From IMG/VR virus record IMGVR_UViG_3300029288_000066, positions 96,001 to 160,000 of that record: a stretch of DNA of 64,000 bases. One strand, written 5' to 3'. Both the position numbers and the translations under genes were made by a program. The notes below the pieces were generated by a model, which was not told the DNA's origin, searched no databases, and worked only from the letters and a program-made list of their open reading frames with translations. Positions 3,702 through 59,035 of the stretch are shown piece after piece (position 1 is the stretch's first letter; each line of letters begins with the position of its first letter). Origin of the DNA: a virus. Lineage: Duplodnaviria > Caudoviricetes.

Positions 3702-4577
3702 TTATTTTAAGTTTTCTTTTTTCTTGGTAAACACATTCTCTGTTGAATCTGATGTAATCCCATATTCAAACTTAATCCTTTCACACTTTAATATTTTATT
3801 ATAAAAGTTGTTTGGAAATGTATCCAGCAGTGTGTTGTTCTGATTTGCGAGCACCTGACACTCTTTTTCAATATTAAAATAGCCCTCACGTTGACTTGTG
3901 ATAAAATTGCTTAAATCCGCATAAAATTTCGTGAACTCATCATAAGGAATTTGCTGATTTTCTTGTATCCACTTCCACGTTACCTTTTCACCATCTTTAC
4001 GGTTTTCCATTATTATTTTAGTAACCTGAATAAATGTTTCCTTGTTGACATTTGTTATTTTTTCTTTTTGTAAATAAGTTTTCCACAACTTATCATAGAA
4101 ACCCTTTTTTTCTTCTACTTTCTGAGTGTAGGTATTGTGATACATTTTTGATTTGTTGTAAACATTTTTACAGTCAATAACAATAGATTTAAGAAATCCA
4201 AACAAATAAAAAGCAGCCACAATTGCCACTATCCACCAAATAATTTTTTTGAAGTTTATTTGCTTTTTTGGTGTGTCCTTTTCCTCTCTTTCTGTCCTTT
4301 CACTCCTTGGTTCATAGTTTTTGTAAAGAAAGGACAAAGGTCCTTTGTCTTCATCCGACATAACCAAGTCAGCAATAACACATATAGTAAATACCGCCGT
4401 AATTCCAATTGTTAATGAAGATATTATTACATGAAATGCTCCAAATGACAGGTGTGCTCCATCATCATCTCCAATAAGTGGCACATCCCACAATGCCATT
4501 GTAATGCCAATTAATAAAAATGACACTATTGCACCAAGCACAATAGCCCAAGTTCTACTCATTAAATTTTTTTTCAT
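3702..4577 (-). CDS. Membrane protein (3 TM) with LemA-like C-terminal region
   Basis: Three hydrophobic segments; LLDTFPNNF motif. Confidence 0.5.
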   Translation of the reverse strand: MKKNLMSRTWAIVLGAIVSFLLIGITMALWDVPLIGDDDGAHLSFGAFHVIISSLTIGITAVFTICVIADLVMSDEDKGPLSFLYKNYEPRSERTEREEKDTPKKQINFKKIIWWIVAIVAAFYLFGFLKSIVIDCKNVYNKSKMYHNTYTQKVEEKKGFYDKLWKTYLQKEKITNVNKETFIQVTKIIMENRKDGEKVTWKWIQENQQIPYDEFTKFYADLSNFITSQREGYFNIEKECQVLANQNNTLLDTFPNNFYNKILKCERIKFEYGITSDSTENVFTKKKENLK

Positions 4578-19590: not shown

Positions 19591-19943
19591 ATAAGATGAG
19601 CATAGCCAGAGTTCTGTTTTATTTTAGCATTTGTCTGGCAAAATGACTCGTCAAACTGCCGTTAGCCTCTACCAGGTCATTATAGAATTGAAGGTTCCCA
19701 TTCTAGACCCATTTGAGTTGCACACCGCCATTTGGCTATTTATTTAAAATAAACGTTGCACCAGTAATAACGATTGTAATTCGTGGCTTTCGGGTTACTG
19801 ATTTATTTGGCGCACTCTAACCCATTTTTCTATTTTGATGCCAATCCTAACAACTTTAACATTACAATCTTCTGATTCCTTCTTAATGATGTGCTCTGAG
19901 CTTCCTCATGTATTAATTACATGCGCTAAATCCTCTTTCTTAT
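19591..19943 (-). ncRNA. rnpB: RNase P RNA
   Basis: P4 strands GAGGAAGCTCAGAGC and ACAGAACTCTGGCTA; P3 CATGTA/TACATG; P2 TTTAGC/GCTAAA; about 350 nt. Confidence 0.85.
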
Positions 19944-20814
19944 TTTTATTAATTTTCCATCGTTTTTTTTGACAGTTATCCGAACAAAATCTTTTATGAT
20001 TATATTCTGTGTTAAATTTTTTCCCACAAAACCCACAAGTTCTATTTAAATAACTTTCTTTTACTATTGTTTCCCATTTGTGATTATAACATACAACTGG
20101 ACTTATTCCGATAAAATTTAAAAACTCAAAAACCTTTTTATTTGGTATTATAATTCTATTGGTACTCTCTTTTAAATAGGCATCAAACTCATAAAAATTC
20201 AATTTTTCAATTAAAACTTTATTATCTTCTTTGGAAAATGAATCAGTGCAAAAAACAGCCCCAACCTGATTATCTAAAGTCCCATCCCCTAAATACCAAT
20301 GCAGAACAACGGTTCTGTTAAGTTCTATATCTTTGGGAACTATTTTTTTTCCATTTGGATACCACTTTTCTCTTAATTTAGTAAAACACTTATTTGCTCT
20401 TGATGTTATAGTAAAATAATCATTCCCGTTGCTATATCCACTATGCCCTTTTCCGCTGTACTGTGACAACTCAAATCCAAGTTGTTCTGCTAAAAAATCA
20501 ATGTATTCTTTAAAAACACAAGAATGAGTAAAAGATGAATTTTGGTTATTGATTATTCTTTTGCAATGTCCATCAGAAAGTAAAGACCCATTTATAACAT
20601 CTAAGTCATTTTTTGTCAAAACTATTTCTTCTAAATTCTTTTTTGACTCATCTGAACACCTTAAAGAACAAAATCTGTTTGCCTTATGTTTCCTTTTTAG
20701 AAATTCAGCTCCACAAATTTCACATCTTCCTTTAATATAATATTCATAACCAGTACCGCTTTTACGTTTTTTTTTGTAAGAACCATCTTTTGTTATTTCG
20801 AAATCTCCTATCAT
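19906..20814 (-). CDS. LAGLIDADG homing endonuclease with zinc-finger termini
   Basis: INGSLLSDG and HWYLGDG motifs; CxxC...FCSxxC at both ends. Confidence 0.88.
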   Translation of the reverse strand: MIGDFEITKDGSYKKKRKSGTGYEYYIKGRCEICGAEFLKRKHKANRFCSLRCSDESKKNLEEIVLTKNDLDVINGSLLSDGHCKRIINNQNSSFTHSCVFKEYIDFLAEQLGFELSQYSGKGHSGYSNGNDYFTITSRANKCFTKLREKWYPNGKKIVPKDIELNRTVVLHWYLGDGTLDNQVGAVFCTDSFSKEDNKVLIEKLNFYEFDAYLKESTNRIIIPNKKVFEFLNFIGISPVVCYNHKWETIVKESYLNRTCGFCGKKFNTEYNHKRFCSDNCQKKRWKINKNKKEDLAHVINT

Positions 20815-21973: not shown

Positions 21974-21989
21974 ATATTTTAAAGAACAT

Positions 21990-28735: not shown

Positions 28736-30166
28736 TTAACGATTTCTTTTCATTTTTAATTCTCTTTGAGCCTCTCTTTCCTGAGTTTTCTTCTTTTCCA
28801 ATCTTCTTTCTTTAAAGGTAGGTCCAGAGTTTTTGTCCTTTATGTTTAATAAAGGCTTTAGTCTATCAATAATGGTAGCAGTCGGCTCAATAGCCGCTTC
28901 AATCATCTTTGAGCTTTTATACGAATTCGGAGCCTCATCTATAGTGCCACGCACAACCGAAGTAGAATATATTCCTTCCATTTGTTTTCTAAAAGTATCC
29001 ATGTCAAGAGTCTCTTTTGCTTTTGTTCTTGACATGCATCTTCCAGCCCCATGAGGTGAAGAAAAATTCCACTCAACATTTGATTTGCCTTCGCAAACCA
29101 ATATTCCATCTCTCATATTGAATGGGATAATCATTCTCTCTCCAACATAAGAACGGATAGCACCTTTACGAATAATAAAATCCCTAAAGTCAATAAAATT
29201 ATGGATACTTTCTATTTTATCAACTGGGATAATTCCTCCTAATATATTACAAACAATATTAAGCATCATTTCTCTGTTGAACTGTGCGTATTTTTGGGCG
29301 ACAAGCATATCAATAAGATATTCAAAAGCAGCGTTTCCTTCCAAAAATTCCATTCCTTTAACATCAAAATCGAAATCAAGGCCTAATTCTTTTTTTGCCT
29401 CAGAAATTAAAGAAGAAATCTTTGATTTATCTTCAGTGTTTTTTGTGATTTCTTCAATTTTGGCTCTTAAAATGTCGTTTCTGTTGTGGTCAAGTCCCTT
29501 CTTTGCCTTGTCCTGGTGATATTCACAAATCATTTTTCCAAAATTTCTTGACCCAGAGTGAATAGTTACCCAAACATCCCCACAACTATCTGATTTTGAG
29601 ACTTCTATAAAGTGATTGCCCCCACCGAGAGTTCCAATTGACAACTCAGCACGATTTGGCTTCATTCCAATCTTCTTACATAAAGCTCCAAAATCTTTAT
29701 AATCGTATTTACTGTAAGAATAGTTAGTTCCAAATTTTACATTATAAGCCCTAATAAAGGCCAGCATTTCATTATTAAGCACTTCCCAATGAAAGTATTT
29801 ATCAAATGAAAATTTATCATTAAAATTGAATTTAAATTCTTTTTCGTGAGTATTAATTCCCATAGGAACGTCTCTTCTTAATCTATCATCGAATTCTTTT
29901 AAAGTAATGGTTAATTTGCTACCAATGTTTGCTGATAGCATACCGCAGCCTATATCCACAGAGACGACATTAGGAATTATTTTAATTCCCATAGGCATTG
30001 TAAATCCAACACAACTTCCCTTCCCTGCGTGTCCGTCTGGCATTACAACAACTCTATTATCGAATGCAACATGACTAATCATCCTATAAACTTGATTAAT
30101 CATTTCCTGTTCAAACTCATCAATTGTTAAATATGCCGTTGTAAATTTCCCCTTAAGCTCTATCAT
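28736..30166 (-). CDS. rtcB: RtcB RNA ligase
   Basis: MPDGHAG, VDIGCG, GTLGGGNHFIE, HSGSR, HN, HGAGR. Confidence 0.95.
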   Translation of the reverse strand: MIELKGKFTTAYLTIDEFEQEMINQVYRMISHVAFDNRVVVMPDGHAGKGSCVGFTMPMGIKIIPNVVSVDIGCGMLSANIGSKLTITLKEFDDRLRRDVPMGINTHEKEFKFNFNDKFSFDKYFHWEVLNNEMLAFIRAYNVKFGTNYSYSKYDYKDFGALCKKIGMKPNRAELSIGTLGGGNHFIEVSKSDSCGDVWVTIHSGSRNFGKMICEYHQDKAKKGLDHNRNDILRAKIEEITKNTEDKSKISSLISEAKKELGLDFDFDVKGMEFLEGNAAFEYLIDMLVAQKYAQFNREMMLNIVCNILGGIIPVDKIESIHNFIDFRDFIIRKGAIRSYVGERMIIPFNMRDGILVCEGKSNVEWNFSSPHGAGRCMSRTKAKETLDMDTFRKQMEGIYSTSVVRGTIDEAPNSYKSSKMIEAAIEPTATIIDRLKPLLNIKDKNSGPTFKERRLEKKKTQEREAQRELKMKRNR

Positions 30167-33489: not shown

Positions 33490-33655
33490 AAATTATTGAT
33501 TTACAATGCACATATATGTGTAGTGCATTTCTTTTAATCATTTATACGATTTAATGCAAAAAAAGTTATATTATCGGACATGGGGAAAACACTTATTTTT
33601 AATTTTTGTTATAATTTGCCAAAAAAAATGATATTTATAATAAAAGCATATTTGT

Positions 33656-34348
33656 ATGGGAAATGAAGTTTTAGTAGCGGTGATAGGAGCAACAGCAGTA
33701 ATCTCTACTGCAATAGTTACTGGTGTGTTTAAAGTTATGGAATCCAGAAAAAAGAAAGCGGAGGAAGCAAATAAAAGAGAGCCTATAACACAGATGAAGT
33801 TGTTTGAAAAGGATTTGTTCAGTAAATCCGAATACTGGGTGAACTATACAATAAAGAGATTGGGATTTGAACAGGGTGACAGAAATTGGATTTACGAAAC
33901 AATCATGAGGGTGAAAATAGAAACAATTGCAAAAATGTTTAAAGAATTTCTTCAAAACAACGACTTAATGGCCTTATCAGACACAAGATTTGAAAACTTG
34001 ATATTTGCATTGATATCTGATATAATAGATGAGTATAATGAAGGAATAAGAGTAGAATTTAAAGAGTTCTTTGGAAAAAATAAAGGAGAAAAAATATTCA
34101 ATCTTGTAATGGATAAGCAACCCTCAAAAGAAAGCCCATCGGCAGGATTCAACATTTGGAACGCTCTTACAATAACATATTTGGAAAAGTCAATAAAAGA
34201 CCATTGCGACTCTTTCTATCCTAATAATGTAGAAAAAATGAGCATGATATTAGATGAATTCAAATGTGCCATTGGAGCCGCACATACACACTTATACAAA
34301 ACATTCGGAAACTTCAATGGTGAATTGGATTTCCTATTGCTTACCTAA
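33656..34348 (+). CDS. N-terminally membrane-anchored late protein
   Basis: Single N-terminal TM; TATTTATA upstream. Confidence 0.65.
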   Translation: MGNEVLVAVIGATAVISTAIVTGVFKVMESRKKKAEEANKREPITQMKLFEKDLFSKSEYWVNYTIKRLGFEQGDRNWIYETIMRVKIETIAKMFKEFLQNNDLMALSDTRFENLIFALISDIIDEYNEGIRVEFKEFFGKNKGEKIFNLVMDKQPSKESPSAGFNIWNALTITYLEKSIKDHCDSFYPNNVEKMSMILDEFKCAIGAAHTHLYKTFGNFNGELDFLLLT

Positions 34349-43596: not shown

Positions 43597-43737
43597 AATC
43601 AAGGGAAAATTTGAAAAAGTGTAACCCTTTCGGGATGGCGGGATTTGAACCCGCAATGACCTTTCGGTCACCAGATTTTTAGTCTAGTGTCTGTACCAGT
43701 TCGACAACGAAGTAACTTTTTCGATTGCCACTTGATT
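43597..43737 (-). ncRNA. Scaffold (Y-RNA-like) ncRNA 1 carrying Leu-type tRNA body
   Basis: GTGGCAATCGAAAAAGTTACTTCG...CACTTTTTCAAATTTTCCC enclosing D, anticodon (loop CTAAAAA), variable and T arms. Confidence 0.7.
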
Positions 43738-43765
43738 TTATTTTCAATATTTTAAAGAACGATGT

Positions 43766-54040: not shown

Positions 54041-54332
54041 AATTTGTTTTTTGTGCACCTCATTATACGAGAAAAAACAAATTATGTTACAACTAACGTT
54101 TTTTTGTTGGGAAATATTTTTCGTTGATTTTCTTCTGACATTCTTGCCAGGTTTCTCCTTCGAATTCTTCTACGAATTCATATCCAGCATTGTTTTCTTT
54201 GTCAAACTTACGTGTCTTGCTGTGTAAGAGAATTTGGCCGCTTTCTTTGTTTTTATACACCTGGACTATCATAAATATAAATAGTCTGGGAATGTGGAAA
54301 ATAATAAAAAAATGTGAAAATTTTGTGTAGTG

Positions 54333-54406
54333 TGGACCCAGGAGGAATTGAACCTCCGACCTTTTGATTATGAGTCAACTGCTCTGACCAACTGAGCTAT
54401 GGGTCC
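54333..54406 (-). tRNA. tRNA with CAT anticodon, probably Ile2 (lysidine)
   Basis: Loop CTCATAA; Ile-like body and Ile operon context; Met not excluded. Confidence 0.8.
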
Positions 54407-54412
54407 TTGGTG

Positions 54413-54486
54413 TTGTGAAGGTCGGGCTCGAACCGACATATCTCCTGCTTATAAGACAGGCGCCGTCACCATTTAGCTACTCCACA
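54413..54486 (-). tRNA. tRNA-Ile(TAT)
   Basis: CCTGT-CTTATAA-GCAGG. Confidence 0.87.
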
Positions 54487-54558
54487 GTTTGTGTTTCCCC
54501 AATGGCCTCTGGCTGTGGGGAAACTAACGTATTCGTATATGAATTTGTATCCGCATCA

Positions 54559-54819
54559 TTAAAACATTATTCTATTTTCTTCAATTTGATAATCTTCAAT
54601 TCTTTTATACCATCCACCTAAAATATCGCATCCTTCTGGTATCTTACTTAACACCCTTCTTGCCATGGGAAGAGCATAATCCTCCTCAATTTTGTACTCT
54701 CGTTCACTTTCAAACAACTTAAAAAGGTTTGGATTGCTCGCCCCACTTAAGCCCTTTAGAAGTCCACTATTTTCCCATGACCTAACTATATTTTCTCTCC
54801 GCTCTTGCAAGTTTTCCAT
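54559..54819 (-). CDS. Small protein resembling N-terminus of gp23-type major capsid protein
   Basis: SWENSGLLKGL...LFE...ALPMARRVLSK; own host-type promoter. Confidence 0.5.
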   Translation of the reverse strand: MENLQERRENIVRSWENSGLLKGLSGASNPNLFKLFESEREYKIEEDYALPMARRVLSKIPEGCDILGGWYKRIEDYQIEENRIMF

Positions 54820-54869
54820 AATTTTTTAATTCAAATATATGAAATTATATTTCAAATCTCAAGTTTTTG

Positions 54870-54942
54870 TCGGAATGGAGGGAGTTGAACCCACGACCTT
54901 TTGAATATCAGTCAAATGCTCTACCAACTGAGCTACATTCCG
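54870..54942 (-). tRNA. tRNA-Ile(GAT)
   Basis: TTTGA-CTGATAT-TCAAA. Confidence 0.9.
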
Positions 54943-54949
54943 TTATTTG

Positions 54950-55023
54950 TGGACAAGGTAGGATTTGAACCTACGACCCCGAAGTTATCAGCTTCGTCTT
55001 CTAACCAACTGAAATACATGTCC
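54950..55023 (-). tRNA. tRNA-Ile(GAT)
   Basis: CGAAG-CTGATAA-CTTCG. Confidence 0.9.
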
Positions 55024-55024
55024 G

Positions 55025-55981
55025 TTATAATTGTTTTCCTTTTTCGTATTGCTCCAATTCTTTTTTCCCAAGCATTATGTGATAATATCCTTCTGATAAT
55101 ACAGCTTTTTTCTTTGCTTCTAATTTATCTCTATCACGTTTTTGAAACCATTCTCCCTTCATTTCTATAACTAAATTTCTCTCTGGTAAATAAAAGTCTG
55201 TAACATGAATACTCTTTTCTCCTTCAAATTCATATTCTATTCTTAACGTTTCGTAGAAATACATTTCTTTTCTTTCATCCAAAACATCCATCATTCTTAG
55301 TTCATAAGAACTTCTGTAATAAACCTCCTTCCCATACCAAGTCGTGTGATATCCAGTTTGATATTTAGTATTTACATTTGGAATTGCTCTACCTTCAACA
55401 AACGCCAGTCTTAAAGACTTAGATGTTGTTCTTAAATTAATACCGTTCTTTTTAAAGAAAAAATGTGTTGTATTATACATTATCCCATATTCATTTCTTA
55501 TTTGAATCAGTGCTTTTTTATTTGTAAAATACTCTTTTGAAAGGAGTATTAAAGCATTTTGATTTGACACCTGTAAGTTTTTTTGTAAAACTCCCAATTT
55601 GTTAAACAGATTTTTGTATTGTATGAAAGAACTACATAAATTACAATATTTTTTTTTGTTTTCATTAGAAATTTCCACCCCACAGCTTAAACATATTTTT
55701 TTATCTCCTTTTTTTTCACACAAAGGTCTCGCAGATTTTCTACGATTTCTTTCTTCATCAGAAATATTACAATTATATCTTCCATTGTTTTTACCAGAAG
55801 TTTTTAATATTCTTTCAGTAGACTGTTTTCTTCCTCTTAATTTTTCAGACGCTCTTTCATAGGATTCTTCAGTTCTAAATTTTGATGAGTATGTTCTAGC
55901 GCACTCTCTTGAACAGAATTCTCCTGTGGAATACTTACTGTATTTTATAGCTTCTTTTTTATTACAACTTTTACATTTCAT
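55025..55981 (-). CDS. PD-(D/E)xK (TnsA-like) homing endonuclease
   Basis: YRSSYE, YE.LRI.Y, TDFYL...VIEMKG; N-terminal zinc finger. Confidence 0.8.
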   Translation of the reverse strand: MKCKSCNKKEAIKYSKYSTGEFCSRECARTYSSKFRTEESYERASEKLRGRKQSTERILKTSGKNNGRYNCNISDEERNRRKSARPLCEKKGDKKICLSCGVEISNENKKKYCNLCSSFIQYKNLFNKLGVLQKNLQVSNQNALILLSKEYFTNKKALIQIRNEYGIMYNTTHFFFKKNGINLRTTSKSLRLAFVEGRAIPNVNTKYQTGYHTTWYGKEVYYRSSYELRMMDVLDERKEMYFYETLRIEYEFEGEKSIHVTDFYLPERNLVIEMKGEWFQKRDRDKLEAKKKAVLSEGYYHIMLGKKELEQYEKGKQL

Positions 55982-56063
55982 AACAAACAAATTTACTATA
56001 AATATACAAAAAAATTCGAATATTCGATGCCAGATTAAAAATATTTCAAAGAACTTGTTTTTG

Positions 56064-56136
56064 TGACCCAGGCGGAGTATGATTCCGCAACCCCATCATT
56101 AAAAGTGATGTGCTCTACCAATTGAGCTACTGAGTC
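56064..56136 (-). tRNA. tRNA-Lys(TTT), aberrant T-loop
   Basis: CATCA-CTTTTAA-TGATG; T-loop ATCATAC. Confidence 0.85.
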
Positions 56137-56141
56137 TTTTG

Positions 56142-56214
56142 TGAACCAGGTGGGAGTCGAACCCACATCCTTCGATTTAAGAGACCGAAGCTCCACCAAT
56201 TAAGCTACTGGTTC
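56142..56214 (-). tRNA. tRNA-Lys(CTT)
   Basis: TCGGT-CTCTTAA-ATCGA. Confidence 0.9.
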
Positions 56215-56218
56215 ATTG

Positions 56219-56291
56219 TACTGCTGGAGGGACTCGAACCCTCAACCCACGGAGCAAAAATCCGTTGCTCTACCAATTAAGCTACAACAGC
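56219..56291 (-). tRNA. tRNA-Lys(TTT), G37/C38 variant
   Basis: ACGGA-TTTTTGC-TCCGT. Confidence 0.85.
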
Positions 56292-56301
56292 GAAATGTTT
56301 G

Positions 56302-56372
56302 TGCATTCAGTTGGAGTCGAACCAACCTCTGCGGGTTAAAAGCCCGTGGCGAAGCCGCTTTGCTATGAATGC
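56302..56372 (-). tRNA. tRNA-Lys(TTT)
   Basis: CGGG-CTTTTAA-CCCG. Confidence 0.85.
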
Positions 56373-56478
56373 ATTTTTACAAGTGAACTCACAACAATTT
56401 GCAGCTCACTAGTTACTGTTTTCGTTTACATTTAAATTTTTTCATTTTATTTTATCTTTTTTAATTTTTAACTCAAAT

Positions 56479-56514
56479 AAAAACCCCCCAACTCATTTCT
56501 GCGCTGGGGGGTTT
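56479..56514 (-). terminator. Attenuator terminator, Lys/Ile operon
   Basis: CCCCCCAGC...GTTGGGGGG + TTTTT; 5' arm complementary to GCTGGGAG in leader. Confidence 0.85.
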
Positions 56515-56534
56515 AAGGTTTTTGTTATTTACAA

Positions 56535-56618
56535 TTATGCAAAAATCTCCCAGCCACTAAGTTTTTTAATCTTAATGCTAATAGATTTCTTTATAATTAC
56601 AGTTAACAACATATTCAT
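56535..56618 (-). CDS. Attenuator leader peptide MNMLLTVIIKKSISIKIKKLSGWEIFA
   Basis: ATT ATA AAG AAA TCT ATT AGC ATT AAG ATT AAA AAA. Confidence 0.85.
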   Translation of the reverse strand: MNMLLTVIIKKSISIKIKKLSGWEIFA

Positions 56619-56701
56619 TTTATTTTAAATTGTCTGATTTTAATCAAACATAAATAGTTTCTTTTTTCCTTTATACGTATGAAACAAAAAAAGTTTCATT
56701 T

Positions 56702-57085
56702 TTATTCATTTATTTTTTTAAGTGCTTCAAAATATTGTTTCAATTCGTTTCGAAGAGTCATATATTCTTCATATTCTTCCAGCAGTTTTATTTTTGACTC
56801 TGCCAATGCTTTCAATTTAAAAGCTCTTGTTACAGGAGTATTGTCTTTTGCTTTTACATTTCCTTCTGCGTCAACATACAACTCTCTCCCGTCTACACAA
56901 AAATTGGTTTGAATATTGTATGTTCCTAATCCAGATAAAGAAGCACCAAGACTAATGCTTCCACTGCATATGGTACCAACCATGTTGTTTTCTTCTTCTT
57001 GCTTTGGAACAATGTCATATTCACTCTTAGAGAATTTCACAGACAATTCTATAAATCTCAAAACTTTTTCTATTTTCTTTTCCAT
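56702..57085 (-). CDS. Hypothetical protein
   Basis: ORF track. Confidence 0.65.
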   Translation of the reverse strand: MEKKIEKVLRFIELSVKFSKSEYDIVPKQEEENNMVGTICSGSISLGASLSGLGTYNIQTNFCVDGRELYVDAEGNVKAKDNTPVTRAFKLKALAESKIKLLEEYEEYMTLRNELKQYFEALKKINE

Positions 57086-57850: not shown

Positions 57851-57983
57851 AAAAAAGGGGAAAAGTTAGAACAGGGTTTTTCATGTAAAATCCTGGAGTT
57901 TAACCAGTACCCATTGAATTAAAAGTCAATTGCTCAACACTGAGCTAATTTTACGAAGTAGCTGTTCAGATTGCCACCTTTTT
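57851..57983 (-). ncRNA. Scaffold (Y-RNA-like) ncRNA 2 carrying Lys(TTT)-like tRNA body
   Basis: GTGGCAATCTGAACAGCTACTTCG...CTGTTCTAACTTTTCCCC enclosing TAGCTCAG..GAGC, ATTGA-CTTTTAAT-TCAAT. Confidence 0.7.
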
Positions 57984-58016
57984 ATGTTTTCAATATTTTA
58001 AAGAACTTATTCTTAG

Positions 58017-58189: not shown

Positions 58190-59035
58190 TTATTTTTTAT
58201 AATCTTTTAGCCATTTTCTAATTGCATTGTCAGAAACACCATATTTTTTGCCAACCGCACAATAATTTGTTTTTTTAATTTCTTGCATCAACTGTTCATA
58301 AGACGGCCTTTCAACCCTTCTTCTACTTTTTTTATAACAATCTATACATTCTTTTGCTTTTACATCCTTCTCTTTCCCACATTTGCAAACTCTTGTTTTT
58401 TCACTTTTCCTTTTAATGTTTCTAAAACAATATGTGTTTAACGTAGAATCACAATTTGGACATATGATTCTTAGATTTTTTAATCTATTATCCATATGAT
58501 TTCCATTAATATGGTCAAGAATTAAAATTAATTTATTTCCATTCCAATTTACATCCTGTCCACACAACTCACAACATTCTTTTTTTAAACCTTCATCATA
58601 CAATCTTTTTTTAAAATTAGAAGGTAAGCTTTTTCCAACTACAAAATAATATTCAATTGGGTTCTTTTTGCAACCAGTAATTACACCTTGTTCTTTTAAT
58701 CGCTTATACAGCTCTTTTTTTCCAGTAAAATGTGAAATGTCTACATTATATCGAGCAATATAGTTTTTTATTGTTGTAAAACTTGCAGATGCTGGATTAA
58801 TATTAAGATTTCTTAAAGCATCAGAATAAGAATATGCATTTTTAACAGCTTCTAGTATTTCTTTTTCTGAATATTTCCAAATTCCATACTTTGCAACTTT
58901 TAAACCAAGACGCTTTGCTTTATGAGCTACGGAATGTTTACTCTTGCCTAACTTTCGAGAACAATATATAGCACCATGCTCTTCATAATTGTTCTTAAGA
59001 AATAAAATTTCATTTTCTACCCATTTATATTTCAT
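58190..59035 (-). CDS. HNH homing endonuclease
   Basis: CELC...LDHINGNHMDNRLKNLRIICPNC; C-terminal HTH. Confidence 0.9.
   Translation of the reverse strand: MKYKWVENEILFLKNNYEEHGAIYCSRKLGKSKHSVAHKAKRLGLKVAKYGIWKYSEKEILEAVKNAYSYSDALRNLNINPASASFTTIKNYIARYNVDISHFTGKKELYKRLKEQGVITGCKKNPIEYYFVVGKSLPSNFKKRLYDEGLKKECCELCGQDVNWNGNKLILILDHINGNHMDNRLKNLRIICPNCDSTLNTYCFRNIKRKSEKTRVCKCGKEKDVKAKECIDCYKKSRRRVERPSYEQLMQEIKKTNYCAVGKKYGVSDNAIRKWLKDYKK

Follow-up and report, generated by a model that had tools for sequence, protein, structure and literature searches.

Leader-peptide attenuators of amino-acid operons in Escherichia coli include trpL, hisL and the multivalent thr and ilvGMEDA leaders. The E. 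coli pheST attenuator, with its pheM leader, controls phenylalanyl-tRNA synthetase, and T-box RNAs bind uncharged tRNA directly and need no open reading frame (ORF). The general theory of leader-peptide transcription attenuation has been set out (PMC1183508), and pheL is a described case (PMC3082878). Here we analyze the Lys/Ile tRNA operon of a tailed phage, IMG/VR record IMGVR_UViG_3300029288_000066 (228,886 nt, estimated to be 82% complete). All positions refer to the window, the 64,000-nt stretch that corresponds to bases 96001-160000 of the record and has a G+C content of 33%. The sequence features make it probable that the locus is a trp-type, ribosome-mediated transcription attenuator, which would release the synthesis of Lys and Ile tRNAs upon slow decoding.

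Like the attenuators of amino-acid operons, the locus has a promoter followed by a short ORF in which a run of codons for at least two amino acids is regulatory. Its RNA can form a 1:2 hairpin and, by use of the 5′ arm of the 3:4 intrinsic terminator, a 2:3 antiterminator; the stop codon is placed so that a finishing ribosome would block region 2. Unlike them, it would gate tRNAs instead of biosynthetic enzymes, and its product is the molecule that the ribosome senses. It is also encoded by a phage, in which six such sister units share out the tRNA set according to amino acid. As with pheST/pheM, the leader peptide would sense the supply of charged tRNA and control a gene that serves decoding and not amino-acid synthesis, whereas the pheST unit has a synthetase as its cargo, senses a single amino acid and is cellular, not viral. 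With T-box riboswitches the locus shares the linkage of tRNA state to intrinsic-terminator read-through by a competing antiterminator; in contrast to them, the conserved feature of the phage unit appears to be a translated codon run. A leader-peptide attenuator had been the original prediction for this locus, and it stands: every computable defining feature is present and is kept, with compensating changes, in three related loci.

According to ARAGORN, the window contains 31 tRNA genes, all of them on the minus strand (31/31); the full record contains 53, grouped into six operons, and additionally one amber-suppressor-like tRNA. All features of the Lys/Ile locus likewise lie on the minus strand, in the order promoter-like site, TATTTAT box, leader ORF, terminator, mini-ORF, hairpin and tRNA block. 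The last consists of four Lys genes, an endonuclease-like ORF, two genes for Ile GAU, an 86-codon ORF and the genes for Ile UAU and a CAU tRNA. It is the only Lys/Ile tRNA block in the genome, and the leader ORF lies directly upstream of it.

The leader ORF (56535-56618; 27 codons plus stop) contains the Ile codons ATT (five) and ATA (one) and the Lys codons AAG (two) and AAA (three), so that all four codon species named by the original prediction are accounted for in 56618-56535. Each of them has a matching anticodon downstream. Ile or Lys occupies 10 of the 12 positions in the regulatory run, codons 8-19 (56597-56562), with a probability of about 5e-5 against the composition of the phage's own long ORFs. 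Because this baseline may flatter an AT-rich intergenic ORF, a six-frame census of short ORFs was added; among 2233 ORFs of 20-45 codons in the 228,886 nt, the leader is the only one to reach 10/12 Ile/Lys/Met. Its start region is unpaired in the predicted fold. The start context is normal for this phage, since the protein genes also have A-rich, Shine-Dalgarno-poor starts. The start codon is ATG in the window and GTG in G001, a complete 372-kb relative, and the frame is kept in all four genomes that were compared.

The same arrangement recurs throughout the genome. Each of its six tRNA operons (six of six) has a leader ORF and a terminator, and when the leaders are tabulated against the amino acids of their operons, the matches fall cleanly on the diagonal. 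In the short-ORF census, five of the six have no rival elsewhere in the genome at the threshold set for each. The G001 genome repeats the six operons, again with diagonal, codon-matched leaders. These results bear on one alternative, that the Ile/Lys ORF is a chance product of AT-rich intergenic DNA beside an ordinary terminator. Lys and Ile codons are indeed the likeliest in A+T-rich sequence, yet the ORF has no equal in the census, is kept in four genomes and follows a design found at six operons in each of two genomes. We give this explanation almost no credence.

The intrinsic terminator (regions 3:4, 56480-56514) has a G+C-rich stem of -23 kcal/mol followed by a U-run and begins 20 nt past the leader stop codon. 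Free of ribosomes, the leader RNA is predicted to fold into this terminator and a long 1:2 hairpin (56522-56609, -23 kcal/mol), the 5′ half of which is the Ile/Lys run. The antiterminator strand (region 2, leader nt 62-71, 56548-56557) can instead pair with the 5′ arm of the terminator in a duplex of -13.5 kcal/mol (shuffle p 0.04-0.05). The RNA was then folded up to the terminator loop, that is, without the 3′ arm, with the ribosome footprint masked codon by codon. The 5′ arm of the terminator is sequestered in these folds when the A site is on codons 4-18, and it is free with the ribosome on codons 19-28 or with no ribosome at all. This predicted on/off pattern matches the logic of the trp attenuator.

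Relatives were found via homologues of the 127-residue gene that lies just upstream. With near-identical copies paired, they provide three independent loci, L005 (part of G001), L026 (nearly identical to L027) and L028 (nearly identical to L029), whose upstream-gene proteins are 56%, 58% and 58% identical to that of the window; the sample for conservation is thus small (n = 4 genomes). All three loci retain the promoter core, a leader of 25-27 codons with an Ile/Lys-rich core and a terminator that begins 18-23 nt past the leader stop, followed by a Lys-rich mini-ORF, a hairpin, and genes for tRNA-Lys and tRNA-Ile. Across these lineages the residue order of the leader core varies while its Ile/Lys composition stays. 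Between the window and G001 the regulatory run differs by synonymous changes only (AAG to AAA, ATT to ATA). A search with the leader core pattern in viral and metagenome contigs returned G001 as the sole match. More distant homologues of the upstream gene (L025 and L030-L035, 43-47% identity) are not accompanied by tRNA genes at the corresponding site and do not bear on the attenuator either way.

The C-terminal third of the leader is not conserved as protein, yet its RNA remains complementary to the terminator arm of each genome, although these arms differ. The antiterminator segments of the relatives occupy the same leader position with different sequences (p <0.001, 0.004 and 0.010). RNAalifold recovers the antiterminator helix from the four sequences with 13 pairs, 4 of which are changed on both sides, and footprint-masked folds give the same on/off pattern in 4/4 genomes.

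A switch that works independently of translation, through T-box-like tRNA sensing or through antitermination by a protein or small RNA, would also make use of competing hairpins, which exist with or without translation; tRNA-sensing riboswitches such as the T-box leaders are known, and the ORF would then be incidental. Rfam, however, gave no match to a T-box or any other riboswitch at E up to 1 in 54200-56800. The four genomes keep the reading frame, an ATG or GTG start, the stop position and the Ile/Lys composition while the nucleotide order varies, and, from the window to G001, the run changes only by the synonymous substitutions given above. In addition, the amino-acid sets of six leaders match those of their operons, a correspondence that an RNA binding tRNA directly would not need. 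Taken together, these observations make the translation-independent switch very improbable.

The promoter-like site, AAC-N15-CGTATAA (56671-56695), has its AAC at 56695 and CGTATAA at 56677-56671, and it is present at the equivalent position in L005, L026 and L028. It is followed downstream by a AAACTATTTAT box (56650-56660), in which TATTTAT occupies 56656-56650. The motif is a generic one of this phage: AAC-N13-17-CGTA.AA occurs 46 times genome-wide (minus strand, 42), whereas shuffled sequences contain 7-19, and the sites usually lie ahead of genes. The repeats of operons A, B and C hold the same core as CGTAGAA, followed by a GAACTATTTA-like box, and the form GAACTATTTA is common to these repeats and to the relatives. 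The 83-nt repeat itself occurs just three times in the window, once at each of the other three operons; over its first 50 nt, the Lys/Ile promoter region nevertheless aligns with the repeats at 77-81%. An exact-pattern search with the promoter repeat gave no further match in viral contigs. The operon had been thought to lack the promoter repeat of its sisters and to use a different type of promoter, composed of AAC-N15-CGTATAA and TATTTAT. Both elements are present and the long repeat is absent, but a different type is an overstatement, because the motif is generic to the phage and the same core is found in the operon A, B and C repeats.

Between 56695 and 54194 there is no further AAC..CGTA.AA promoter-like site, which fits a single transcription unit without proving it. 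A second motif has to be considered here. GTTCTTT[A/G]AAATAT, often followed by TGAAAA, recurs directly past the terminators of the attenuators in operons A, B, C and E; it is also located past the Lys block (56055-56041) and past some tRNA 3′ ends, where it precedes endonuclease ORFs. Apart from 56055-56041, its sites are at 21988, 43761, 59370, 59093 and 58007 (minus strand) and at genome positions 177590, 169446 and 169105. The motif could be a promoter or an RNA-processing site.

These elements are relevant to the possibility that the promoter, leader and terminator form a separate mini transcription unit, either a small peptide gene or an insulator, and that the tRNAs are transcribed from a promoter downstream of the terminator. 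A weak sigma-70-like match (9/12) does exist at 56476-56449, and GTTCTTT[A/G]AAATAT follows the terminators of other operons and, in this one, the Lys block. Sigma-70-like matches are nevertheless at the level of chance for AT-rich DNA (74 found vs 56 expected), and this one is not kept in the relatives, as judged by eye. Neither the generic promoter motif nor the GTTCTTT motif is found between the terminator and the first tRNA-Lys of the Lys/Ile unit. Moreover, a separate unit leaves unexplained the codon match in 6/6 operons and the co-varying antiterminator, and it does not sit well with a peptide whose C-terminal third is unconserved as protein and yet tracks the terminator sequence. We consider such a unit improbable.

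Several observations weigh against the attenuator. Lys is the commonest and Ile the third commonest residue of this 33% G+C genome, so that the Ile/Lys leader, taken alone, is the least striking of the six. The antiterminator of the window is the weakest of the four genomes, with 8 pairs, a bulge and the borderline shuffle values given above. The terminator always wins at equilibrium; therefore, the model requires kinetic trapping, as in classical attenuators. Rfam matches to His_leader (RF00514, 24.6 bits vs a gathering threshold of 49, E 0.36) and Phe_leader (RF01859, 24.2 bits vs 55, E 0.47) are far below threshold, even though both cover the full models (56476-56598), and the phage unit falls outside both sequence families. 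Finally, should GTTCTTT[A/G]AAATAT act as a promoter, the attenuator would have only partial control of the Ile tRNAs, and other whole operons would not depend solely on their attenuators.

From the parts, their order, the statistics, the alternative pairings and the conservation, all of which were computed, we infer leader translation, stalling, read-through and a physiological trigger, which would operate as follows. Transcription would begin at the AAC-N15-CGTATAA promoter, and a ribosome would start on the 27-codon leader. With ample Lys-tRNA and Ile-tRNA, it would pass codons 8-19 into the last third of the ORF and cover nt 62-71; the terminator at 56514-56480 would then form, and RNA polymerase would stop ahead of the tRNA genes. 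Slow decoding would instead stall the ribosome on the Ile/Lys run, whether because host tRNA-Lys and tRNA-Ile are scarce, uncharged or cleaved or because of the load imposed by the AT-rich codon usage of the phage itself. The stalled ribosome would break the 1:2 hairpin and free nt 62-71 to pair with the 5′ arm of the terminator, so that polymerase could read through into the four tRNA-Lys genes and the four genes for AUH-decoding tRNAs. The new tRNAs would relieve the stall and thereby close a negative feedback loop.

Full-text literature searches found no description of leader-peptide attenuator control for tRNA genes. What is new about the proposed attenuator is its cargo, tRNA genes gated by a sensor made of their own codons, in a phage, and in six units sorted by amino acid. 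It would extend leader-peptide attenuation from enzyme genes to RNA genes, with the product itself as the sensed molecule, and such leaders would offer compact, amino-acid-specific sensors of tRNA supply. There has long been a debate about the purpose of phage tRNA genes, with codon compensation and evasion of tRNA-cleaving defenses as the main candidates (PMC10264068). If the attenuator reading is true, the phage would gauge its decoding capacity for individual codons and make tRNAs when they are needed, and the debate would become directly testable.

The Lys/Ile unit is the member of the six that is tied most directly to known defense targets. tRNA-Lys is a target of PrrC and PARIS, and the tRNA-Lys of T5 neutralizes PARIS (PMC11464382); phage tRNAs with altered anticodon loops escape anticodon nucleases (PMC10264068), and phage evasion of retron effectors has been treated as well (PMC11555353). 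Like the counter-defense tRNAs of phages, the cargo of the operon includes several genes for tRNA-Lys, which anticodon nucleases are known to attack. A tie between the Lys/Ile unit and the tRNA-Lys nucleases PrrC and PARIS (PMC11464382, PMC10264068) is plausible. Judged by their titles and abstracts, these studies differ from the present case in that they are concerned with the function of phage tRNAs and not with gene control that senses demand.

Downstream of the terminator, the unit contains two additional elements that none of the other five possesses in conserved form, namely a mini-ORF and a hairpin. Both had been noted in the original prediction as a possible second checkpoint, and they are indeed present and kept in four genomes. 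The mini-ORF (56413-56445) has 10 codons plus stop, 5 of them for Lys, and its counterparts in L005, L026 and L028 lie in the same place; in 4/4 genomes it comprises 10-13 codons with Lys at alternating positions. The hairpin (56382-56410, -11.4 kcal/mol) starts 2 nt after the mini-ORF stop, and this distance is 0-4 nt in 4/4 genomes. Its sequence is different in each of the four. It is not followed by a U-run and is therefore not a terminator.

An alternative partner for the loop and 3′ arm of this hairpin is the 5′ end of the first tRNA-Lys, to which they are complementary over 10-14 nt (nt 1-14 in the window). The energies of tRNA pairing vs the hairpin are -11.1 vs -11.4 kcal/mol in the window, -11.9 vs -13.1 in G001, -14.9 vs -15.0 in L026 and -7.2 vs -10.7 in L028, so that the two foldings are nearly equal in 3/4 genomes. 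The complementarity to the tRNA 5′ end has p values of 0.037 (window), 0.019 (G001), 0.002 (L026) and 0.28 (L028), with a combined value of 2.5e-4. Since this test was devised after the fold had been seen, and one genome of the four fails it, the complementarity is treated as a lead only.

This lead suggests that control of the Lys block could have two tiers, in which the mini-ORF and hairpin would constitute a second switch, read by the ribosome, with tRNA maturation instead of transcription as its target. On arriving at the stop codon of the mini-ORF, a ribosome would open the hairpin; the freed 3′ arm could then bind the 10-14 nt at the 5′ end of the nascent tRNA-Lys, so that the acceptor stem would not form. 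With the ribosome stalled on the Lys codons of the mini-ORF, the hairpin would form and the tRNA would fold. We put this forward tentatively and hold it to be rather improbable. The hairpin may be such a translation-read switch on tRNA folding or processing or, equally, a processing or stabilizing hairpin. By eye, a further hairpin ahead of the tRNA-Ile UAU gene (54524-54493) is not complementary to its own tRNA, so the anti-acceptor idea does not hold in general.

The eight tRNA genes of the operon, all on the minus strand, are identified by ARAGORN and by Rfam tRNA matches, in agreement with the content that had been proposed (Lys TTT three times and CTT; Ile GAT twice, TAT and CAT). The Lys genes have the anticodons UUU (56372-56301 and 56291-56218), CUU (56214-56141) and again UUU in the last of the block (56136-56063). 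They are followed by two genes for tRNA-Ile GAU (55023-54949 and 54942-54869), one for tRNA-Ile UAU (54486-54412) and the CAU tRNA (54406-54332). The best full-length E. coli match of the last is the CAU-anticodon gene annotated as tRNA-Ile beside mug (77%, E 3e-5), which we take to be ileX. This match supports the Ile2-like label given to the CAU tRNA before. The second tRNA-Lys UUU (56291-56218) has an atypical anticodon loop by eye, with G37/C38 replacing A37/A38, while the other three have the usual loop. The atypical loop recalls the altered ones of phage tRNAs that escape anticodon nucleases (PMC10264068).

Within the operon, the ORF at 55025-55990 (minus strand) shows weak similarity to Phage_endo_I/DUF7487 and matches PHROG endonuclease families with E values of 5e-13 to 6e-8; from these matches it is probably a homing endonuclease. 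No family was matched by the 86-residue ORF at 54819-54559 (minus strand). It was considered as a conserved part of the unit and rejected, being unrelated to an ORF of similar size in L026. Endonuclease-type ORFs occur within tRNA operons at 19906-20814, 55025-55990 and 58190-59035 (minus strand), and the families among them are LAGLIDADG (E 7e-25), Phage_endo_I-like and, for one, a weak helix-turn-helix only. Such ORFs would share transcripts with the tRNAs. The same phage encodes an RtcB RNA ligase of 476 residues (28736-30166, minus strand; Pfam RtcB, E 1e-58), which could serve in the repair of cleaved tRNAs.

Upstream of the leader, a 7-bp inverted repeat (56699-56679, minus strand; arms 56699-56693 and 56685-56679) flanks a T-run and overlaps the promoter-like site. 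It directly follows the stop codon of the upstream gene, is retained in G001 and, in part, in L028, and might serve either as an operator or as a weak terminator of that gene.

In G001, Ile tRNAs seemed to be missing at first. This view was withdrawn, as non-canonical tRNA-like genes follow directly after the Lys block; the first is without a D arm and has a GAU anticodon loop according to Rfam, and the next has a UAU anticodon loop by eye. The pair, located at L019 11591-11668 (minus strand) and in the next ~80 nt downstream (G001 about 31168-31005), is missed by ARAGORN and seemingly has no normal D arm and a long variable region; the first scores 37 bits against Rfam tRNA. Suppressor-like tRNAs are located at 196604-196678 of the present phage genome (G000; outside the window) and at 74251-74324, 75335-75409 and 33634-33706 of G001; both phages have such tRNAs with a CUA anticodon, and in G001 one with UUA lies within the Asn/His/Thr operon. 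In L026, TAG (3971-3973) is the stop codon of the Ile/Lys leader; read-through of this codon would add 8 codons, and the extended leader would end at a TAA close to the terminator. The suppressor-like tRNAs and the TAG ending are hints of stop-codon recoding in the clade.

Neighboring units show cross-talk. The Ile/Lys leader of L028 (3009-3092) contains four Asn codons as well, and the Asn/His/Thr leader of the window (59521-59432, minus strand) includes codons for Lys and Ile; the two operons are neighbors, and AAN is the codon box of both Asn and Lys. For the Leu/Cys sister leader, a reading as a lipoprotein signal was discarded, since the ORF has just 26 codons and suits the six-fold pattern. 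The Leu/Cys and Asn/His/Thr operons also have a repeated segment (43707-43760 and 57953-58006, minus strand) and tRNA-like fragments, which are located past the terminator but ahead of the first complete tRNA; in operons B and C, this post-terminator stretch is 43760-43600 and 59370-59200. One such post-terminator fragment of G001 (L019 15561-15626) scores 30.5 bits against Rfam tRNA.

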